A DNA stretch of 64,000 bases, taken from the NCBI RefSeq assembly GCF_003334785.1, contig NZ_QOWV01000001.1, one strand, 5' to 3'. Below are positions 28,945 to 53,103 of the stretch, piece after piece. The DNA is from Escherichia coli. Its GTDB lineage: Bacteria; Pseudomonadota; Gammaproteobacteria; Enterobacterales; Enterobacteriaceae. The position numbers were made by a program, and so were the translations under genes. The notes beneath the pieces were generated by a model, which was given only the letters and a program-made list of their open reading frames with translations, searched no databases and was not told the DNA's origin. Position 1 is the stretch's first letter; each line of letters starts with the position of its first letter.

Positions 28945-31900
28945 ATGCAAAGGAAAACTCTATTGTCGGCCTGTATTGCATTAGCTCTGAGTGGTCAGGG
29001 TTGGGCGGCAGATATCACAGAGGTAGAAACCACCACAGGTGAAAAGAAAAATACCAATGTGACTTGTCCGGCAGACCCAGGAAAACTCAGTCCGGAAGAG
29101 CTTAAACGCTTACCCTCTGAATGCTCTCCTTTAGTCGAACAAAACCTGATGCCATGGCTTTCCACAGGCGCTGCTGCGTTAATCACGGCCTTAGCCGTAG
29201 TGGAACTAAACGACGATGATGATCATCATCATCGCAACAATTCTCCACTCCCACCGACACCCCCTGATGATGAATCAGACGACACTCCAGTTCCCCCAAC
29301 TCCTGGCGGAGATGAGATAATACCGGACGATCCGGATGATACGCCTACACCTCCCAAACCGGTTTCGTTTAATAATGACGTTATTCTCGATAAAACAGAA
29401 AAAACGTTAACTATTCGCGATTCAGTTTTTACTTATACCGAGAATGCTGACGGGACTATATCTCTGCAAGATAGCAATGGTCGTAAGGCAACGATTAATC
29501 TTTGGCAGATTGATGAAGCGAATAACACTGTTGCCCTTGAAGGGGTGAGCGCAGATGGCGCAACGAAGTGGCAATATAATCACAACGGTGAGCTTGTTAT
29601 TACGGGTGATAATGCCACAGTAAACAACAATGGCAAAACCACCGTTGACGGTAAAGATTCCACCGGTACGGAAATCAACGGTAATAACGGGAAAGTGATT
29701 CAGGACGGCGATCTGGATGTCAGCGGCGGCGGTCACGGTATTGATATCACCGGTGACAGCGCGACGGTGGATAACAAGGGCACCATGACCGTCACCGATC
29801 CGGAGTCCATGGGTATCCAGATCGACGGTGACAAGGCCATCGTCAATAACGAAGGCGAGAGCACCATCACCAACGGTGGCACCGGCACCCAGATTAATGG
29901 TGATGACGCCACGGCAAACAACAACGGCAAAACCACCGTTGACGGCAAGGATTCCACCGGTACGGAAATCAACGGTAATAACGGAAAAGTTATTCAGGAC
30001 GGCGATCTGGATGTCAGCGGCGGCGGTCACGGTATTGATATCACCGGCGACAGCGCAACGGTGGATAACAAGGGCACCATGACCGTCACCGATCCGGAGT
30101 CCATCGGTATCCAGATTGACGGCGACCAGGCCATCGTCAATAACGAAGGCGAGAGCACTATCACCAATGGCGGCACCGGCACTCAGATCAACGGTAACGA
30201 CGCCACCGCGAATAACAGTGGAAAAACCACTGTTGATGGAAAAGATTCCACGGGTACCAAAATCGCGGGCAATATCGGCATTGTAAATCTGGATGGTAGC
30301 CTGACTGTTACAGGCGGTGCGCATGGTGTTGAGAACATTGGTGACAACGGCACGGTTAACAACAAAGGAGATATTGTTGTTTCCGATACTGGATCGATTG
30401 GCGTGCTCATCAACGGTGAGGGGGCAACAGTATCCAATACGGGTGATGTTAACGTTAGCAATGAAGCGACAGGGTTCAGCATCACAACCAACAGTGGGAA
30501 GGTTTCGCTGGCAGGCAGTATGCAGGTTGGCGATTTCTCGACCGGGGTAGATCTTAATGGCAACAATAACAGCGTGACGCTGGCGGCAAAAGATCTAAAA
30601 GTGGTCGGGCAGAAAGCGACGGGCATAAACGTTTCTGGCGATGCGAATACAGTGAATATCACTGGTAACGTTCTGGTTGATAAGGATAAAACCGCAGACA
30701 ATGCGGCGGAATATTTCTTCGATCCATCCGTGGGTATCAACGTTTACGGCAGTGATAATAACGTGACGCTGGATGGAAAGTTAACTGTTGTATCAGACAG
30801 TGAGGTTACTTCTCGTCAGAGTAATTTATTTGATGGCAGCGCAGAGAAAACGTCAGGTCTGGTTGTGATTGGCGATGGCAATACCGTTAATATGAATGGT
30901 GGACTTGAACTGATTGGAGAGAAAAACGCGCTTGCAGATGGGTCGCAGGTTACTTCCTTGCGCACAGGATATAGTTATACCAGCGTTATTGTCGTTAGTG
31001 GTGAGTCGTCGGTATATCTGAATGGAGATACGACAATCAGCGGAGAATTCCCTCTGGGGTTTGCCGGGGTTATTCGGGTACAGGATAAAGCTTTGCTGGA
31101 AATTGGCAGTGGCGCTACGCTAACAATGCAGGATATTGACAGTTTTGAACATCATGGGACAAGAACCCCAGAACTTACTTATGCTGATTCCGGTGCGAAA
31201 ATTGTTAATAAAGGTACTGTTGAAATTCAGAATTTAGGTTTTGCTTTTGTTACTGGTGAAAATACAACAGGTATAAATAGTGGCACGATCTCGTTATTAC
31301 AAAATGGTAAAGATCCGGCACCGTCTCCCATTGTTTTACTGGCTACTAACGGAGGGAGCGCCACTAATGCAGGTACGATCACAGGTAAAGTGACGGAACA
31401 ACATAGCGTATTTAACAAGTATTCAACGGGCACATCGAATTCATTTATTTTTAATAACGATGTCAGTAGCATAACAGGGTTAGTCGCTCAATCGAATAGC
31501 ACAATTATCAATACTGACAGCGGCATCATTGATTTGTATGGTCGTGGTAGTGTCGGCATGCTTGCTATAGCAGATTCAACAGCAGAAAATCAGGGTAAAA
31601 TTACACTGGATTCTATGTGGGTAGATGCAAATGACACTACCGCAATGCGAGATATAGCTAGCAACAGCGCCATTGACTTCGGTACAGGTGTGGGAGTTGG
31701 TACTGATAGTTATAGTGGTGCAGGGAAAAATGCAACAGCAATTAACCAATTGGGCGGTGTTATAACTATTTATAACGCCGGCGCAGGTATGGCGGCCTAT
31801 GGCGCCAGCAATACAGTTATTAACCAGGGGACGATTAACCTCGAAAAAAATGGTAATTATGACGATAGTCTGGCAGCAAATACTCTGGTAGGGATGGCTG

Positions 31901-34713
31901 TTTATGAGCATGGTACTGCTATCAACGACCAGACGGGTGTTATCAATATCAATGTTGGTACTGGTCAGGCGTTTTATAACGATGGCACAGGAACAATTGT
32001 TAACTATGGTACAATCTGCACTTTCGGCGTGTGCCAATCGGGGAATGAGTACAATAATACAGATGATTTCACCTCACTGATCTATACCGGTGGCGATACG
32101 ATTACACGAAGCGGAGAAACTGTAACGCTAAATAAATCTGCTGCTGTGACTGATAAGCTGGCTGGGAATGTTGTTAATAGCGGAACGCTTTCCGGTGATC
32201 AAATTACGGTATCAAGCGGTCTTCTGGAAAATACCAGCGGTGGCATCATCAATAACTTAGTAAAACTTGACAAGGGTGCCGTCATTAAAAATGCCGGGGT
32301 GATGACGAATAACGTCGATGTTAGCGGTGGAATCCTCAATAATGCCGGAGAAATGACTGCGCAAATTACCATGAATGCTGGTGCTGATAGTTCGTTAGTG
32401 AACAACACCGGAACCATCAATAAAATCGTGCAGAACGCGGGGGTATTCAATAATAGTGGCAGTGTAACAGGGCGGATGATGTCGGCTGGCGGGGTCTTTA
32501 ATAATCAAACTGACGGGGCGATTATGAGAGGTGCTGCGCTGACAGGTACTGCAGTGGCAAATAACGAAGGAACCTGGAACCTCGGAAGTAGTAGTGAGGG
32601 TAACAACACCGGGATGCTGGAAGTTAATAATAATTCAGCTTTCAATAACCGCGGCGAGTTTATTCTTGATAACGACAAGAATGCTGTGCACATCAACCAG
32701 TCCGGTACGCTTTATAATACCGGTCACATGAACATCAGTAATTCTTCCCACAACGGAGCCGTTAATATGTGGGGCGGAAATGGTCGTTTTATCAATGACG
32801 GAACGATTGATGTTTCTGCGAAGTCACTGGTAGTCAGCGCTAATAATGCCGGCGATCAGAATGCCTTCTTCTGGAACCAGGATAACGGGGTCATCAACTT
32901 CGATCACGACAGCGCCAGTGCCGTGAAAGTCACCCACAGCAACTTTATTGCCCAGAATGACGGCATCATGAACATCAGCGGCACCGGTGCTGTGGCTATG
33001 GAAGGTGATAAGAACGCGCAGCTGGTTAACAATGGCACCATCAACCTCGGTACCGCAGGCACTACTGACACGGGTATGATCGGTATGCAACTCGATGCCA
33101 ACGCCACGGCGGATGCGGTAATCGAAAACAACGGCACCATCAATATCTTCGCCAATGACTCGTTTGCATTTAGCGTACTGGGTACAGTAGGTCATGTGGT
33201 TAACAACGGCACGGTGGTGATTGCCGATGGGGTTACGGGTTCTGGACTGATCAAGCAGGGCGACAGCATCAATGTTGAAGGTATGAACGGTAACAACGGT
33301 AATAGCAGCGAAGTGCATTATGGCGACTATACGTTGCCGGATGTGCCGAAGCCCAATACGGTTAGTGTAACGTCGGGAAGTGATGAGGCTGGTGGCAGCA
33401 TGAACAACCTCAACGGCTATGTCGTCGGTACCAACGTTAACGGCAGCGCCGGGAAGCTGAAGGTTAACAATGCCAGCATGAACGGCGTGGAGATTAACAC
33501 GGGCTTTACCGCTGGTACGGCAGACACCACTGTGAGTTTTGATAACGTAGTGGAAGGTAGCAACCTGACCGACGCTGACGCCATCACCTCAACGTCCGTG
33601 GTATGGACTGCCAAAGGCAGCACCGATGCCAGCGGTAACGTTGACGTCACCATGAGCAAAAATGCCTACACCGATGTGGCAACAGATGCCTCGGTGAATG
33701 ACATCGCGAAAGCACTGGATGCGGGTTACACCAACAACGAACTGTTTACCAGCCTGAACGTCGGCACGACTGCTGAACTGAACAGTGCTCTGAAACAGGT
33801 CAGCGGTAGCCAGGCGACCACGGTATTCCGCGAAGCGCGCGTGTTAAGCAACCGCTTTAGTATGCTGGCAGATGCCGCGCCGAAAGTGGGTAACGGTCTG
33901 GCGTTCAACGTTGTCGCGAAAGGCGATCCGCGTGCCGAGTTAGGTAATAATACCGAATACGACATGCTGGCATTGCGTAAAACTATCGACCTGAGCGAAA
34001 GCCAGACGATGAGTCTGGAGTACGGTATCGCTCGTCTCGATGGTGATGGTGCGCAGAAAGCGGGTGATAATGGCGTTACAGGCGGTTATAGCCAGTTTTT
34101 TGGCCTGAAACATCAGATGTCGTTCGATAACGGCATGAACTGGAATAACGCCTTGCGTTACGACGTTCACAACCTTGACAGCAGCCGCTCGATTGCATTT
34201 GGCAACACGAACAAAACGGCTGATACCGACGTGAAACAGCAGTACCTGGAGTTCCGCAGCGAAGGGGCGAAGACTTTCGAACCGAGCGAAGGACTGAAGG
34301 TTACGCCATATGCGGGTGTAAAACTGCGTCACACACTGGAAGGTGGCTATCAGGAGCGCAATGCCGGAGACTTTAACCTGAATATGAACAGTGGCAGCGA
34401 AACGGCGGTGGACAGCATCGTCGGGCTGAAACTGGACTACGCAGGTAAAGACGGCTGGAGCGCTAGCGCTACGCTGGAAGGCGGGCCGAACCTGAGCTAC
34501 GCGAAGAGCCAGCGTACGGCAAGCCTGGCAGGCGCAGGCAGTCAGCACTTTAACGTCGATGACGGTCAGAAGGGCGGCGGCATCAATAGCCTGACAAGCG
34601 TCGGCGTGAAGTACAGCAGCAAAGAAAGTTCGCTGAATCTGGATGCGTACAACTGGAAAGAGGATGGCATCAGCGATAAAGGCGTGATGCTGAACTTCAA
34701 GAAAACGTTCTAA
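28945..34713 (+). CDS. ydbA: Giant autotransporter (type Va secretion) with Gly/Asn/Thr-rich beta-helical passenger and C-terminal beta-barrel, 1922 aa; appears intact
   Basis: Single uninterrupted 5.8-kb ORF; N-terminal signal-like segment MQRKTLLSACIALALSGQGWA; Pro/Thr/Asp-rich linker; C-terminal approx 280 aa with alternating amphipathic strands ending ...GVMLNFKKTF (terminal aromatic, typical of OM beta-barrels). Gene symbol by synteny with the E. coli ydbA locus. Confidence 0.85.
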   Translation: MQRKTLLSACIALALSGQGWAADITEVETTTGEKKNTNVTCPADPGKLSPEELKRLPSECSPLVEQNLMPWLSTGAAALITALAVVELNDDDDHHHRNNSPLPPTPPDDESDDTPVPPTPGGDEIIPDDPDDTPTPPKPVSFNNDVILDKTEKTLTIRDSVFTYTENADGTISLQDSNGRKATINLWQIDEANNTVALEGVSADGATKWQYNHNGELVITGDNATVNNNGKTTVDGKDSTGTEINGNNGKVIQDGDLDVSGGGHGIDITGDSATVDNKGTMTVTDPESMGIQIDGDKAIVNNEGESTITNGGTGTQINGDDATANNNGKTTVDGKDSTGTEINGNNGKVIQDGDLDVSGGGHGIDITGDSATVDNKGTMTVTDPESIGIQIDGDQAIVNNEGESTITNGGTGTQINGNDATANNSGKTTVDGKDSTGTKIAGNIGIVNLDGSLTVTGGAHGVENIGDNGTVNNKGDIVVSDTGSIGVLINGEGATVSNTGDVNVSNEATGFSITTNSGKVSLAGSMQVGDFSTGVDLNGNNNSVTLAAKDLKVVGQKATGINVSGDANTVNITGNVLVDKDKTADNAAEYFFDPSVGINVYGSDNNVTLDGKLTVVSDSEVTSRQSNLFDGSAEKTSGLVVIGDGNTVNMNGGLELIGEKNALADGSQVTSLRTGYSYTSVIVVSGESSVYLNGDTTISGEFPLGFAGVIRVQDKALLEIGSGATLTMQDIDSFEHHGTRTPELTYADSGAKIVNKGTVEIQNLGFAFVTGENTTGINSGTISLLQNGKDPAPSPIVLLATNGGSATNAGTITGKVTEQHSVFNKYSTGTSNSFIFNNDVSSITGLVAQSNSTIINTDSGIIDLYGRGSVGMLAIADSTAENQGKITLDSMWVDANDTTAMRDIASNSAIDFGTGVGVGTDSYSGAGKNATAINQLGGVITIYNAGAGMAAYGASNTVINQGTINLEKNGNYDDSLAANTLVGMAVYEHGTAINDQTGVININVGTGQAFYNDGTGTIVNYGTICTFGVCQSGNEYNNTDDFTSLIYTGGDTITRSGETVTLNKSAAVTDKLAGNVVNSGTLSGDQITVSSGLLENTSGGIINNLVKLDKGAVIKNAGVMTNNVDVSGGILNNAGEMTAQITMNAGADSSLVNNTGTINKIVQNAGVFNNSGSVTGRMMSAGGVFNNQTDGAIMRGAALTGTAVANNEGTWNLGSSSEGNNTGMLEVNNNSAFNNRGEFILDNDKNAVHINQSGTLYNTGHMNISNSSHNGAVNMWGGNGRFINDGTIDVSAKSLVVSANNAGDQNAFFWNQDNGVINFDHDSASAVKVTHSNFIAQNDGIMNISGTGAVAMEGDKNAQLVNNGTINLGTAGTTDTGMIGMQLDANATADAVIENNGTINIFANDSFAFSVLGTVGHVVNNGTVVIADGVTGSGLIKQGDSINVEGMNGNNGNSSEVHYGDYTLPDVPKPNTVSVTSGSDEAGGSMNNLNGYVVGTNVNGSAGKLKVNNASMNGVEINTGFTAGTADTTVSFDNVVEGSNLTDADAITSTSVVWTAKGSTDASGNVDVTMSKNAYTDVATDASVNDIAKALDAGYTNNELFTSLNVGTTAELNSALKQVSGSQATTVFREARVLSNRFSMLADAAPKVGNGLAFNVVAKGDPRAELGNNTEYDMLALRKTIDLSESQTMSLEYGIARLDGDGAQKAGDNGVTGGYSQFFGLKHQMSFDNGMNWNNALRYDVHNLDSSRSIAFGNTNKTADTDVKQQYLEFRSEGAKTFEPSEGLKVTPYAGVKLRHTLEGGYQERNAGDFNLNMNSGSETAVDSIVGLKLDYAGKDGWSASATLEGGPNLSYAKSQRTASLAGAGSQHFNVDDGQKGGGINSLTSVGVKYSSKESSLNLDAYNWKEDGISDKGVMLNFKKTF
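29617..30260 (+). repeat. In-frame tandem repeat inside ydbA: two full 294-bp (98-aa) units plus a diverging partial third
   Basis: Unit beginning ...NNGKTTVDGKDSTGTEINGNNGKVIQDGDLDVSGGGHGIDITGDSATVDNKGTMTVTDPES(M/I)GIQIDGD... recurs with period 294 bp (e.g. GGCAAAACC at 29632 and 29926); copies differ at roughly 20 mostly synonymous positions by eye. Confidence 0.85.
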
Positions 34714-35843: not shown

Positions 35844-38150
35844 ATGTTTAAGGCCAGGAATTGCGGCTGGATACGTTTACTGCCCCTGTTTATGCTGAGT
35901 CTACCAGTACAGGCGGAACTTCGATGTGTTGCAAATGCAGTTGATATTGAATCATTTTTTTCTGCGGCTACCGCTGAAGATAAACAACAAGTTGAACAAG
36001 CTATCAACAGTAGCGTGAATCTTGTCCCCTTCGGTTTATCTGCATCGAACTGGAAAGTGCATCGTGGCGATTTAGTGGTAGAAGGTAATATAGAGAGTAA
36101 TCAAAAATTGATTGTTCTTGGGAATTTGACAGTCAAAGGTAATATTTCCACTTTCTCTCTTTCTAATCCATGGGTTATTCTCGGTAACGTGACGGCAACG
36201 AATATAGTTGCGGATTCACCACTGTTAATTACCGGTTCGATAAATGCAAGTGGACTGGTATTTATCGACTCATATTACGATAATCCGTCTACGATTAAGG
36301 GGAGTATTAATGCGCGTGGGATATTTATCAATGACATAATTGCACCTGTTGTTGCGTCTTCGACAAATAGTGAATTCATGGTCCGTGCGAGTGACAAACA
36401 TGACACTGAAAATGTCAAAAAAGCGCTGATGATAATAAATCCTGATGCATATTATTGGGGGCTAATTAATGATGAAGATGCTCTGAAAGAAATTTTTAAG
36501 CGAAGCAATATTCGCATGGCAGGGAATGTCTGTAATCAGATGAAAAAAGAAGCGCTGTTTCGCCCTAAGCCTTCTCCTGAGTTAGTGCAAGAATTGCAAA
36601 TGCTGGATGAAGGCAAAGTTGCTGCATTTGAAGGACGAGACATTGCGACATTTGATCTTGCCGTAATGCGAACTCTCCCAAGGCTTAAAGGAATTTCAGC
36701 TAACCTACGCAAACAACTTATTAATAGCAATGATGAACAAACGATTGAAAGTATGGCGAGATATATGCCTGACAATGAGATTCTGGAGTTGACCGATCAG
36801 CAATTGGGTTACCAGCCTGTTGTTCTGGGGTTGCTCGACCGTGAACCGCTCTCTGTCGAAATAATGACGCGAATGAGTCGTCTACCTGATGGTGTCGGTC
36901 CGTTGAATCTTGCGCTACGTGAAAATCTCCCTCTGGATATCGTCATGACTCTGGCGAAAAGAGATTGGGATATGATCATTCAGGAGCTTTATAAAGATGC
37001 GTGGTTATTGCCTGAATCCATTATTGATGGCTATATCCGCAGTGATGATTCCTCTATTCGTCAGGTCGGTGCTGGAGGACAACTCACCTACAATCAGGCA
37101 ATGCAGTTGGCGAACGATTCATCAAACAATGTTGTCACAAGCTTAGCGTTCAAGCTGGCAGAGATGAAACACCATGGTCAATTGTTGCGGATGACGCCAC
37201 AAGAGAGTGACAAAGTTGCAGGCTATTTATACCAAAAATTCGAGAATGACGATGATCTAATACGTGTGTTATTTTTAGCATTGCCAGATAACTTACAGTT
37301 TAATTTTGTTAAAAGGATGGAGAAAAAATCCCCGGCCTACTTTTGCTGTCGGGATATGCAGGTAATTCACTCTGACGCTGCTTTACAACGGTTATTGACA
37401 CGTTTCAACGATCCTGAAGGGTGGAGTAATCTGGCGAAAAATCAGTATCTGAGCACGTCGATGAAACAAAAAATTTGGCAACGTGCTTTATCGCATCGGA
37501 AAAATAATCCGAAAGCAGATTCAGATGCATATGAAACCAGCGCTGATATGATTTTGTCTGAGCTGATTAGCCACGGCGAAGTTGATGACCAGATGCTATT
37601 AAATGCCACCGCCCTGATACGTTCGGACGACTGGGACTTTTTAGAGAGTGCATTAATTAGTTGGGATAATTTACCCGCTGTTGTTCTCAAGGAATTACAG
37701 CAAAACACGCCACGCAATGATATTTGGGCGAAGTTTTTTCTGAGGCAGGAAAACAGTTCCCGTGCGCAGGTTGACGAAGCGTTACGTGTTTATTATGCAC
37801 TAGACCCCGATGCGTTAGCACAACTGGATGTACTGGCAAAACAACCGGATCGTATATGGTGGAGTACACTGGCGAAAAGCAATCTCACATTTTTCAAGTT
37901 CGGCGCACTTAACAACCGCCACACACCGCCTGCAGTACTGGCGGCAGAAATTGATCCCGAGTGGTGGATTGTGGCGATGAATAATCCCCGTTTTCCAGTT
38001 GATGTATTAAAGGCGAGGCTGAAACGTGATCCTTTGCTGGCGTTAGAGCTTGTTAACCCTGAACTGGATTTAGTCCGCCAGCTGGCGCTTAACGGTAAGA
38101 CGCGCGCAATACGGGAACAAGCGATGAGAAAACTTGATGAGTTGTATTGA
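35844..38150 (+). CDS. ydbD: Large secreted/periplasmic protein of unknown function YdbD, about 768 aa
   Basis: Signal peptide MFKARNCGWIRLLPLFMLSLPVQA; AT-rich coding sequence relative to neighbours (by eye); ATG at 35844 chosen over track 35838. Confidence 0.8.
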   Translation: MFKARNCGWIRLLPLFMLSLPVQAELRCVANAVDIESFFSAATAEDKQQVEQAINSSVNLVPFGLSASNWKVHRGDLVVEGNIESNQKLIVLGNLTVKGNISTFSLSNPWVILGNVTATNIVADSPLLITGSINASGLVFIDSYYDNPSTIKGSINARGIFINDIIAPVVASSTNSEFMVRASDKHDTENVKKALMIINPDAYYWGLINDEDALKEIFKRSNIRMAGNVCNQMKKEALFRPKPSPELVQELQMLDEGKVAAFEGRDIATFDLAVMRTLPRLKGISANLRKQLINSNDEQTIESMARYMPDNEILELTDQQLGYQPVVLGLLDREPLSVEIMTRMSRLPDGVGPLNLALRENLPLDIVMTLAKRDWDMIIQELYKDAWLLPESIIDGYIRSDDSSIRQVGAGGQLTYNQAMQLANDSSNNVVTSLAFKLAEMKHHGQLLRMTPQESDKVAGYLYQKFENDDDLIRVLFLALPDNLQFNFVKRMEKKSPAYFCCRDMQVIHSDAALQRLLTRFNDPEGWSNLAKNQYLSTSMKQKIWQRALSHRKNNPKADSDAYETSADMILSELISHGEVDDQMLLNATALIRSDDWDFLESALISWDNLPAVVLKELQQNTPRNDIWAKFFLRQENSSRAQVDEALRVYYALDPDALAQLDVLAKQPDRIWWSTLAKSNLTFFKFGALNNRHTPPAVLAAEIDPEWWIVAMNNPRFPVDVLKARLKRDPLLALELVNPELDLVRQLALNGKTRAIREQAMRKLDELY

Positions 38151-50412: not shown

Positions 50413-51425
<1,013 letters not shown>

Positions 51426-51601: not shown

Positions 51602-52132
51602 ATGGAAAATAAATATTCAAGGTTACAAATCAGCATTCACTGGCTGGTCTTTTTACTGGTTATCGCAGCGTATTGCGCAATGGAGTTTCGTGGTTTCTTC
51701 CCACGTAGCGATCGGCCACTCATCAACATGATTCATGTTTCCTGTGGCATCTCAATTCTCGTGCTGATGGTCGTTCGTCTTTTGTTAAGGCTGAAATACC
51801 CAACCCCGCCGATTATACCTAAGCCAAAACCGATGATGACGGGACTGGCGCATTTGGGACATTTGGTGATTTATCTCCTGTTTATTGCGCTGCCAGTGAT
51901 TGGTTTGGTGATGATGTATAACCGGGGCAACCCGTGGTTTGCGTTTGGTTTGACGATGCCTTACGCTTCAGAGGCCAATTTCGAACGGGTAGATAGCTTA
52001 AAGTCGTGGCATGAAACGCTGGCGAATCTGGGATATTTTGTCATCGGGTTGCACGCTGCGGCTGCACTGGCACACCACTATTTCTGGAAGGACAACACAC
52101 TTCTACGCATGATGCCGCGTAAACGTTCCTGA
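51602..52132 (+). CDS. cybB: Cytochrome b561 (superoxide:quinone oxidoreductase), 176 aa
   Basis: MENKYSRLQISIHWLVFLLVIAAYCAMEF...; four-TM cytochrome b561 with conserved His; start trimmed from track 51566. Confidence 0.9.
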   Translation: MENKYSRLQISIHWLVFLLVIAAYCAMEFRGFFPRSDRPLINMIHVSCGISILVLMVVRLLLRLKYPTPPIIPKPKPMMTGLAHLGHLVIYLLFIALPVIGLVMMYNRGNPWFAFGLTMPYASEANFERVDSLKSWHETLANLGYFVIGLHAAAALAHHYFWKDNTLLRMMPRKRS

Positions 52133-52142
52133 AGGATATTTA

Positions 52143-52206
52143 AAGAAAACGCCTGTACTAAAACCGACCCGTGGTACAGGCGAAGAATACGGGTCTACAT
52201 CGGAAG
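52143..52206 (-). ncRNA. rydC: RydC small RNA (Hfq-binding pseudoknot sRNA; regulates cfa and other targets)
   Basis: Minus-strand sequence CTTCCGATGTAGACCCGTATTCTTCGCCTGTACCACGGGTCGGTTTTAGTACAGGCGTTTTCTT matches my recollection of the 64-nt RydC; lies immediately downstream of cybB. Confidence 0.75.
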
Positions 52207-52376
52207 CGCCTATTATATTTATTTGTATGATAAATAAAACCATAATCCTTGCCCATACGTCCATCTGGCTTATTTTTAATCAATTCACCCGATCTTTGAT
52301 CTCATCAACGGTATCAAAATAAACCAGCGTATAACGTTCAAATCGAACATAAGATTCGATAAACCATGGAGGTTAT

Positions 52377-52550
52377 ATGAAAAAACTGGCACTTATTTTG
52401 TTTATGGGAACGCTTGTTTCCTTTTATGCCGATGCCGGGCGCAAACCCTGTTCTGGTTCGAAAGGGGGGATCTCACACTGTACGGCAGGCGGCAAATTTG
52501 TCTGTAATGATGGTTCTATTAGTGCATCGAAAAAAACATGCACTAACTGA
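52377..52550 (+). CDS. ydcA: Small secreted Cys-containing protein YdcA, 57 aa
   Basis: ATG at 52377 with GGAGG RBS 6 bp upstream; MKKLALILFMGTLVSFYADAGRKPCSGSKGGISHCTAGGKFVCNDGSISASKKTCTN; below the ORF-track length cut-off. Confidence 0.75.
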   Translation: MKKLALILFMGTLVSFYADAGRKPCSGSKGGISHCTAGGKFVCNDGSISASKKTCTN

Positions 52551-52621: not shown

Positions 52622-52818
<197 letters not shown>

Positions 52819-52829
<11 letters not shown>

Positions 52830-52875
52830 TCGTTGGCCTCGGTTGATAGAAATATCGGTCGGGGCCTTCGTCTTT
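52819..52875 (+). ncRNA. sokB: SokB antisense RNA (antitoxin) overlapping the mokB translation initiation region; boundaries approximate
   Basis: Inferred from hok/sok architecture, in which Sok is antisense to the mok start; coordinates placed relative to the mokB start from memory, not independently verifiable here. Confidence 0.4.
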
Positions 52876-53103
52876 CTGATTCCCGGTTAGCCTGAAAACA
52901 GAAAGTCTCAGGCACCCGCAGGCATCCTATGAGGTTTCCTTAGGGACGAAAATAATCACTTCACGAAATTGCGTGCTGTTTTCCAGAATTTTTCGTCATT
53001 CGGGTTAGCCAGTTTAGCCATTCGTTACTCTCTTCATTCCAATAGCATTAATTTTCTATGCAATAATTGTTGTAAAAATGTGACGCAAAGAGGTTTTTGG
53101 TCA

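Follow-up and report, generated by a model that had tools for sequence, protein, structure and literature searches.

The gap between cybB and ydcA raises the question of whether a short sequence on its minus strand is the gene of the small RNA RydC and, if so, whether it is a complete and functional gene or else something that only resembles one: the structured end of the cybB transcript, a silent relic or a hidden coding sequence. The initial annotation had recognised there, from the letters alone, a 64-nt RydC at 52143-52206, and on the matter of identity the answer is straightforward. In an Rfam 15 scan of the entire window (the whole 64-kb stretch of DNA analysed here) at gathering thresholds, RF00505 (RydC; gathering score 48) matched at 52143-52206 on the minus strand, over positions 1-64 of the 64 in the model, with 92.5 bits and E = 5.2e-17. 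Thus, the covariance-model scan that had been proposed as a check, with the lack of any hit as the outcome speaking against RydC, recovered the RNA at full length and at exactly the proposed coordinates. The scan yielded three matches in the window in total, with RydC represented only once, and nt 1-18 of the RNA occur at a single place in the 64 kb even when 3 mismatches are allowed, against a chance expectation of 0.06.

The RNA reads CUUCCGAUGUAGACCCGUAUUCUUCGCCUGUACCACGGGUCGGUUUUAGUACAGGCGUUUUCUU, and alignment of the surrounding region with the genome of K-12 MG1655 (NC_000913.3) gives 100% identity over 300 bp. That genome carries the ncRNA rydC (b4597, 'small regulatory RNA RydC') at 1491442-1491506 (-), between cybB (b1418) and ydcA (b1419); the annotated b4597 corresponds to window positions 52142-52206, with the same 5' end and a 3' end that extends by one more U (65 vs 64 nt). 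The E-value, together with the exact identity to the annotated rydC, rules out a chance match, and we consider it practically certain that 52143-52206 (-) is the rydC gene of E. coli. RydC, first described in 2005, is an already known, annotated and mechanistically characterised sRNA. The gene and its two neighbours are arranged as follows:

52143-52206, minus strand: rydC gene, starting at 52206 (in RefSeq, 65 nt with the end at 52142); assigned by RF00505 and by identity to b4597
51602-52132, plus strand: cybB (cytochrome b561 / superoxide oxidase), the convergent neighbour 3' of rydC; genomic context, not part of the sRNA
52377-52550, plus strand: ydcA (57-aa periplasmic protein), divergent from rydC; genomic context

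This arrangement agrees with the placement of RydC directly after cybB in the initial annotation. The two genes are convergent, with the cybB stop at 52132 facing the RydC 3' end at 52142/52143, so that 9-10 nt separate the RNA from the stop codon, and upstream of RydC, 170 nt from its start, ydcA begins at 52377. A rydC 3' end facing cybB is the synteny found in most species (PMC11340327). In at least six complete genomes, including that of E. coli 2013C-4991, an IS1A element lies between rydC and ydcA (equivalent to window position ~52309-52312), at a distance of ~105 nt from the rydC start and ~65 nt from the ydcA start codon, upstream of both; this insertion leaves rydC and its core promoter intact and probably disrupts the upstream region of ydcA. 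Just past ydcA is a hokB/mokB/sokB type I toxin-antitoxin locus (hokB/mokB ORFs at 52622-52829 (-); sok model RF01794, 109.7 bits, at 52766-52917 (-)), and in the E. whittamii locus, the sok element is present in two tandem copies, at 1135-1286 and 1632-1783.

Several other features of the window bear on its relationship to the reference genome. The glyceraldehyde-3-phosphate dehydrogenase pseudogene gapC, at 50413-51413 (-), is represented by broken ORFs here, and reference records give it a frameshift and an internal stop. Towards the left edge of the window, at 671-791 (+), a full-length match to the MicC sRNA (RF00121, 125 bits) is placed just upstream of ydbK by the NC_000913.3 offset and is another known sRNA that ORF-based annotation would miss. 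The ydbA gene is an uninterrupted ORF of 1922 aa at 28945-34713 (+), which in K-12 MG1655 is split by IS2D and IS30C. Near 29.9-31.2 kb of the window, the coordinates jump by 294 and 2559 bases relative to NC_000913.3, the 294-base length difference from K-12 lying near 29.9-30.1 kb, and the conversion window = NC_000913.3 - 1439300 is valid only to the right of ~31,250. Because ydbA lacks the IS2/IS30 interruption, the window, taken as a whole, does not come from MG1655 but from a non-K-12 E. coli, although the rydC region is still identical to that of K-12.

The expectation that RydC would be missed by any ORF-based annotation was a fair one. None of the 20 sampled RefSeq rows lists any feature under the rydC match, and the same is true of the 3 PGAP-annotated loci inspected, whereas the curated K-12 record includes rydC. 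In the sampled records, then, a nearly universal E. coli gene is left unlabelled by routine PGAP annotation, and a 64-nt sRNA proved to be recognisable from raw sequence with base-exact coordinates. With rydC already part of the reference annotation, the finding is right but ordinary, and as a discovery, it carries little weight: RydC already has a crystal structure with Hfq, defined targets and an identified repressor, YieP.

The anatomy of the RNA can be laid out, in the order of the transcript, as follows:

52196-52206, minus strand: 5' seed, RNA nt 1-11 (CUUCCGAUGUA), single-stranded and outside both helices; base-pairs with targets
52189-52195, minus strand: 5' arm of helix S1, nt 12-18, GACCCGU; part of a perfect 7-bp inverted repeat and of a helix in the Rfam consensus
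52174-52182, minus strand: 5' arm of helix S2, nt 25-33 (CGCCUGUAC); part of a perfect 9-bp inverted repeat, between the S1 arms
52166-52172, minus strand: 3' arm of helix S1, nt 35-41, ACGGGUC; from the pair list, the inverted repeat and the alignment of relatives
52150-52158, minus strand: 3' arm of helix S2, nt 49-57 (GUACAGGCG); together with the tail, the Rho-independent terminator
52142-52149, minus strand: 3' U-rich tail, UUUUCUU(U); the terminator tail, in contact with the proximal face of Hfq by the published structure (PMC4337610)

RydC thus contains two perfect inverted repeats that interleave: S1, of 7 bp between nt 12-18 and 35-41, and S2, of 9 bp between nt 25-33 and 49-57. Both are Watson-Crick throughout, and the helices, each taken alone, have energies of -10.5 kcal/mol (S1) and -13.8 kcal/mol (S2). 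The resulting pseudoknot is of the H-type, with loops of 6, 1 and 7 nt and with nt 1-11 unpaired, and UUUUCUU(U) comes after the S2 hairpin on the minus strand. The nested minimum free energy fold of the 64 nt contains S2 only and is unremarkable (z = -0.48) because a nested fold cannot represent a pseudoknot; this score was, accordingly, set aside as a pseudoknot test, and the two helices were checked explicitly instead. At least 16 interleaved pairs are possible in ~1.2% of mononucleotide shuffles, so the fold taken on its own is weak evidence, merely suggestive. The crystal structure of Salmonella RydC shows a compact H-type pseudoknot (PMC4337610), and the pseudoknot anticipated in the initial annotation is borne out here by the two interleaved perfect helices, which are retained in relatives with compensatory changes.

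Upstream of the RNA, two further elements come into play:

52212-52217, minus strand: sigma-70 -10 box, a perfect TATAAT at -11 to -6, invariant in 8 Escherichia/Salmonella loci
52221-52235, plus strand: putative YieP operator ATTTGTATGATAAAT, identified by motif match; spans positions -15 to -29 of the rydC promoter

No recognisable -35 box was found upstream of the rydC -10 box, and the promoter has been described likewise, as TATAAT without a -35 box (PMC11340327). In the alignment of the 8 Escherichia/Salmonella loci, the segment between roughly -37 and +1 hardly varies, and further upstream, divergence is complete where the neighbouring gene differs. The generic scan missed both ends of the gene: the lack of a -35 box hid the real -10 box from it, and a 15-nt hairpin loop hid the real terminator. 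The promoter (TGGGCA-17-TATCAT, 52255-52227) and the minus-strand hairpin (52181-52167) that the scanner proposed fit neither the mapped start nor the mapped end of rydC and were rejected.

The putative operator, part of which (52223-52230) is TTGTATGA, lies inside the conserved -37 to +1 segment and agrees at all high-information positions with the YieP motif atTTGTaTGAcaAAT derived by ChIP-exo (PMC7642389). The exact YieP consensus is present in 6 of the 7 other loci aligned; the window and one other E. coli have T for C, a change at a single low-information position. The allele shared by the window and K-12 is TGATAAAT, and most of the other aligned Escherichia have the perfect palindrome TGACAAAT. 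The YieP core pattern TTGTNTGANNAAT has 2 matches in the 64 kb, against 0.23 expected. The other exact match to this pattern, TTGTTTGATGAAT at 37117-37129 (-), lies in an ORF-rich region and may be due to chance. Judging by the motif, 52221-52235 is probably a YieP operator. Deletion of yieP raises expression of rydC'-lacZ 20-fold, and RydC shows up on Northern blots only if yieP is deleted or the RNA is supplied from a plasmid; the operator at rydC is not defined in the same paper, which also notes that rydC is absent from the YieP regulon list of one ChIP-exo study (PMC11340327). Both rydC and ydcA are among the YieP-related candidates picked for follow-up (PMC7642389). The operator observation could help the mapping of YieP repression of rydC.

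Inverted repeats are legible on both strands, and so close to the end of a convergent gene, they might be mainly the terminator or 3' UTR structure of cybB, with the RydC-like match being incidental. The location lends this account some appeal: the element starts 9-10 nt past the cybB stop codon, the repeats form an 11-bp hairpin on the plus strand, and a generic scan found no other terminator-like plus-strand site between cybB and ydcA. However, the plus-strand hairpin is followed by AAGAAUACGGG, without a U run, and is for this reason not a canonical intrinsic terminator, whereas it is the minus strand that carries the U tail, the correctly spaced perfect -10 box and the full-length match to the covariance model. 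Moreover, rydC is conserved in Klebsiella and Enterobacter, where it lies beside other genes (PMC11340327). We consider it very improbable that the hairpins belong primarily to cybB; they may have a secondary role in stopping cybB transcription, but this cannot replace their assignment to an sRNA.

The absence of a U run has another side. Over 52125-52250 on the plus strand, no canonical intrinsic terminator follows cybB before rydC, so that transcription of cybB may continue across rydC and yield RNA antisense to RydC. Such RNA, fully complementary to RydC, may act as a sponge for it, or the read-through may interfere with the transcription of rydC. It is conceivable, albeit rather doubtful, that a single YieP operator serves both rydC and ydcA, that the variant allele alters basal RydC, and that cybB read-through acts by an antisense effect or by interference. 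The TGATAAAT allele, if the operator is read correctly, could set a different basal level of RydC.

With the terminator-bearing minus strand thus taken as that of rydC, we turn to the selective constraint on the gene. The 551 bp around rydC are matched in 5416 of the 5426 complete E. coli genomes (99.8%); the region is missing from 10 complete genomes, and 5 of the 5416 matches are on plasmid-labelled records. The 64 nt of RydC itself occur as a single copy in 5416 genomes, in 4064 of them at 99% identity or more and in 1350 at 95-99%. The common E. coli variant, A13G, converts the A13-U40 pair to G-U, and the most divergent E. coli sampled has, beyond this, two changes in loop 1, U20C and C22U, together with A35G, by which U18-A35 becomes U-G. 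Relatives were collected by a pattern scan of species-representative genomes, in which the seed (nt 1-10) and six S2 pairs were fixed by the pattern, so that invariance at these positions is uninformative. The scan matched seven loci, those of E. albertii, E. whittamii, three other Escherichia lineages, one more E. coli and S. enterica arizonae; the five relatives that were rescanned with RF00505 score 83-91 bits (S. enterica arizonae, 83). The seed is invariant in all aligned relatives, with nt 1-10 being pattern-fixed.

Across 9 distinct Escherichia/Salmonella sequences, all 144 of 144 cells of the pseudoknot pairing are occupied by standard pairs, compared with 26-46% of cells paired in a control in which the 3' partners were slid by 1-3 columns. 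The changes that do occur are of the kind expected of paired positions: the apical pairs of S2 in S. enterica arizonae are replaced from UAC/GUA to CGU/ACG, which amounts to three compensatory pairs, all from this single lineage, and S1 shows two wobble-preserving changes in relatives. The Klebsiella, Citrobacter and Enterobacter homologues known from the literature were not recovered by this strict-pattern scan, and because the pattern was too strict for them, the covariation evidence is thin.

The seed can be connected with a target directly. Nt 3-11 pair with positions -107 to -99 of the K-12 cfa 5' UTR in 9 contiguous pairs (-12.6 kcal/mol), overlapping the RNase E site GGAUUAU at -101, and 1.35% of shuffled seeds pair with cfa equally well. 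The site of RydC on cfa is published, along with the compensatory pair C4G/G101C (PMC6755755); in the register obtained here, C4 is opposite G-100, a one-base difference in numbering. The complementarity of seed and cfa is, thus, reproduced from sequence. Pairing at the RNase E site is how RydC activates the long isoform of cfa, and RydC counteracts Rho-dependent termination as well; it also modestly represses yejABEF, csgD, pheA and trpE and is antagonised by the OmrB sRNA (PMC6755755, PMC11340327, PMC3985669). The stability of RydC requires both Hfq and the pseudoknot, and the Hfq-contact residues named in the structural work, U23, U24, U46 and U47 along with the 3' tail, are all present here (PMC4337610). 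Northern blots have been published for E. coli (PMC11340327) and for Salmonella (PMC4337610). Dependence on Hfq, activation of cfa and repression of other targets, all of which the initial annotation had named, are, thus, on record for the same RNA (PMC4337610, PMC6755755, PMC11340327, PMC3985669).

An intact gene need not be an active one, and rydC in this strain could, in principle, be a functionally silent relic that is never derepressed in nature. In laboratory cultures of the wild type, RydC can indeed hardly be detected, and YieP has no known inducing signal (PMC11340327). The pattern of conservation nevertheless argues for function: 99.8% of complete E. coli genomes keep a single copy, the variation seen preserves the structure, and the seed, helices, -10 box and putative operator are conserved across Escherichia and Salmonella. 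In addition, an acid-sensitivity phenotype has been published for the rydC mutant (PMC6755755). A silent relic seems to us, then, a most unlikely description of this gene, and a functional, tightly repressed sRNA the far better one.

Next to no credence can be given to a small minus-strand protein as the real product, despite the two mechanical ORFs that do overlap the element (52103-52264, 53 aa, and 52158-52283, 41 aa), because both begin upstream of the mapped transcription start and the -10 box and would, therefore, need a different promoter, the 53-aa ORF overlaps the coding sequence of cybB in antisense, conservation drops off abruptly at the 3' end of the sRNA and at ~-37, boundaries that match neither ORF, none of the records inspected annotates them, and the substitutions obey the rules of RNA pairing.

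The scheme that emerges for RydC as a regulatory RNA would run as follows. In standard culture, the GntR/FadR-family repressor YieP holds rydC almost silent, presumably by promoter occlusion because the YieP motif overlies the promoter spacer, at -15 to -29. Once the gene is transcribed, transcription would stop at the S2 hairpin and the U tail, leaving ~10 nt up to the stop codon of the convergent cybB, and the 64-65-nt product would fold into the compact H-type pseudoknot, leaving the seed, nt 1-11, free. According to the literature, the proximal face of Hfq binds the 3' U tail and its rim the U-U steps of the loops, which stabilises RydC and presents the seed. The seed would then pair with the long cfa mRNA isoform, which has a 212-nt 5' UTR, over the RNase E site, a pairing reproduced here; as reported, this would block both the cleavage of cfa and Rho-dependent termination, yielding more cyclopropane fatty acid synthase, which, also by published accounts, would alter membrane lipids and improve acid resistance.

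Comparison with known systems places this RNA with little ambiguity. The closest is rydC of K-12 (b4597), to which all 64 nt are identical and with which the strand, the neighbours cybB and ydcA, the pseudoknot, the seed, the tail and the promoter are shared; the RNA itself is without difference, the RefSeq 3' end being merely drawn one U further. The Salmonella RydC that was crystallised with E. coli Hfq (PMC4337610) has the same seed, S1 and six closing S2 pairs, as well as the same U-rich tail and a U-U step in each loop, but differs in the three apical S2 pairs, which are swapped in a compensatory way (UAC/GUA to CGU/ACG), in one-base loop insertions and in the identity of the 5' neighbour gene. 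ArrS and CpxQ, by contrast, are akin to RydC in target rather than in ancestry. Both, like RydC, act on the long cfa 5' UTR isoform, and the ArrS site on cfa overlaps that of RydC and affords the same protection from RNase E (PMC6755755). However, ArrS, which is antisense to the gadE leader, and CpxQ, which derives from the cpxP 3' UTR, are unrelated to RydC in sequence and origin, and, unlike RydC, neither has a pseudoknot; CpxQ, moreover, represses cfa instead of activating it.
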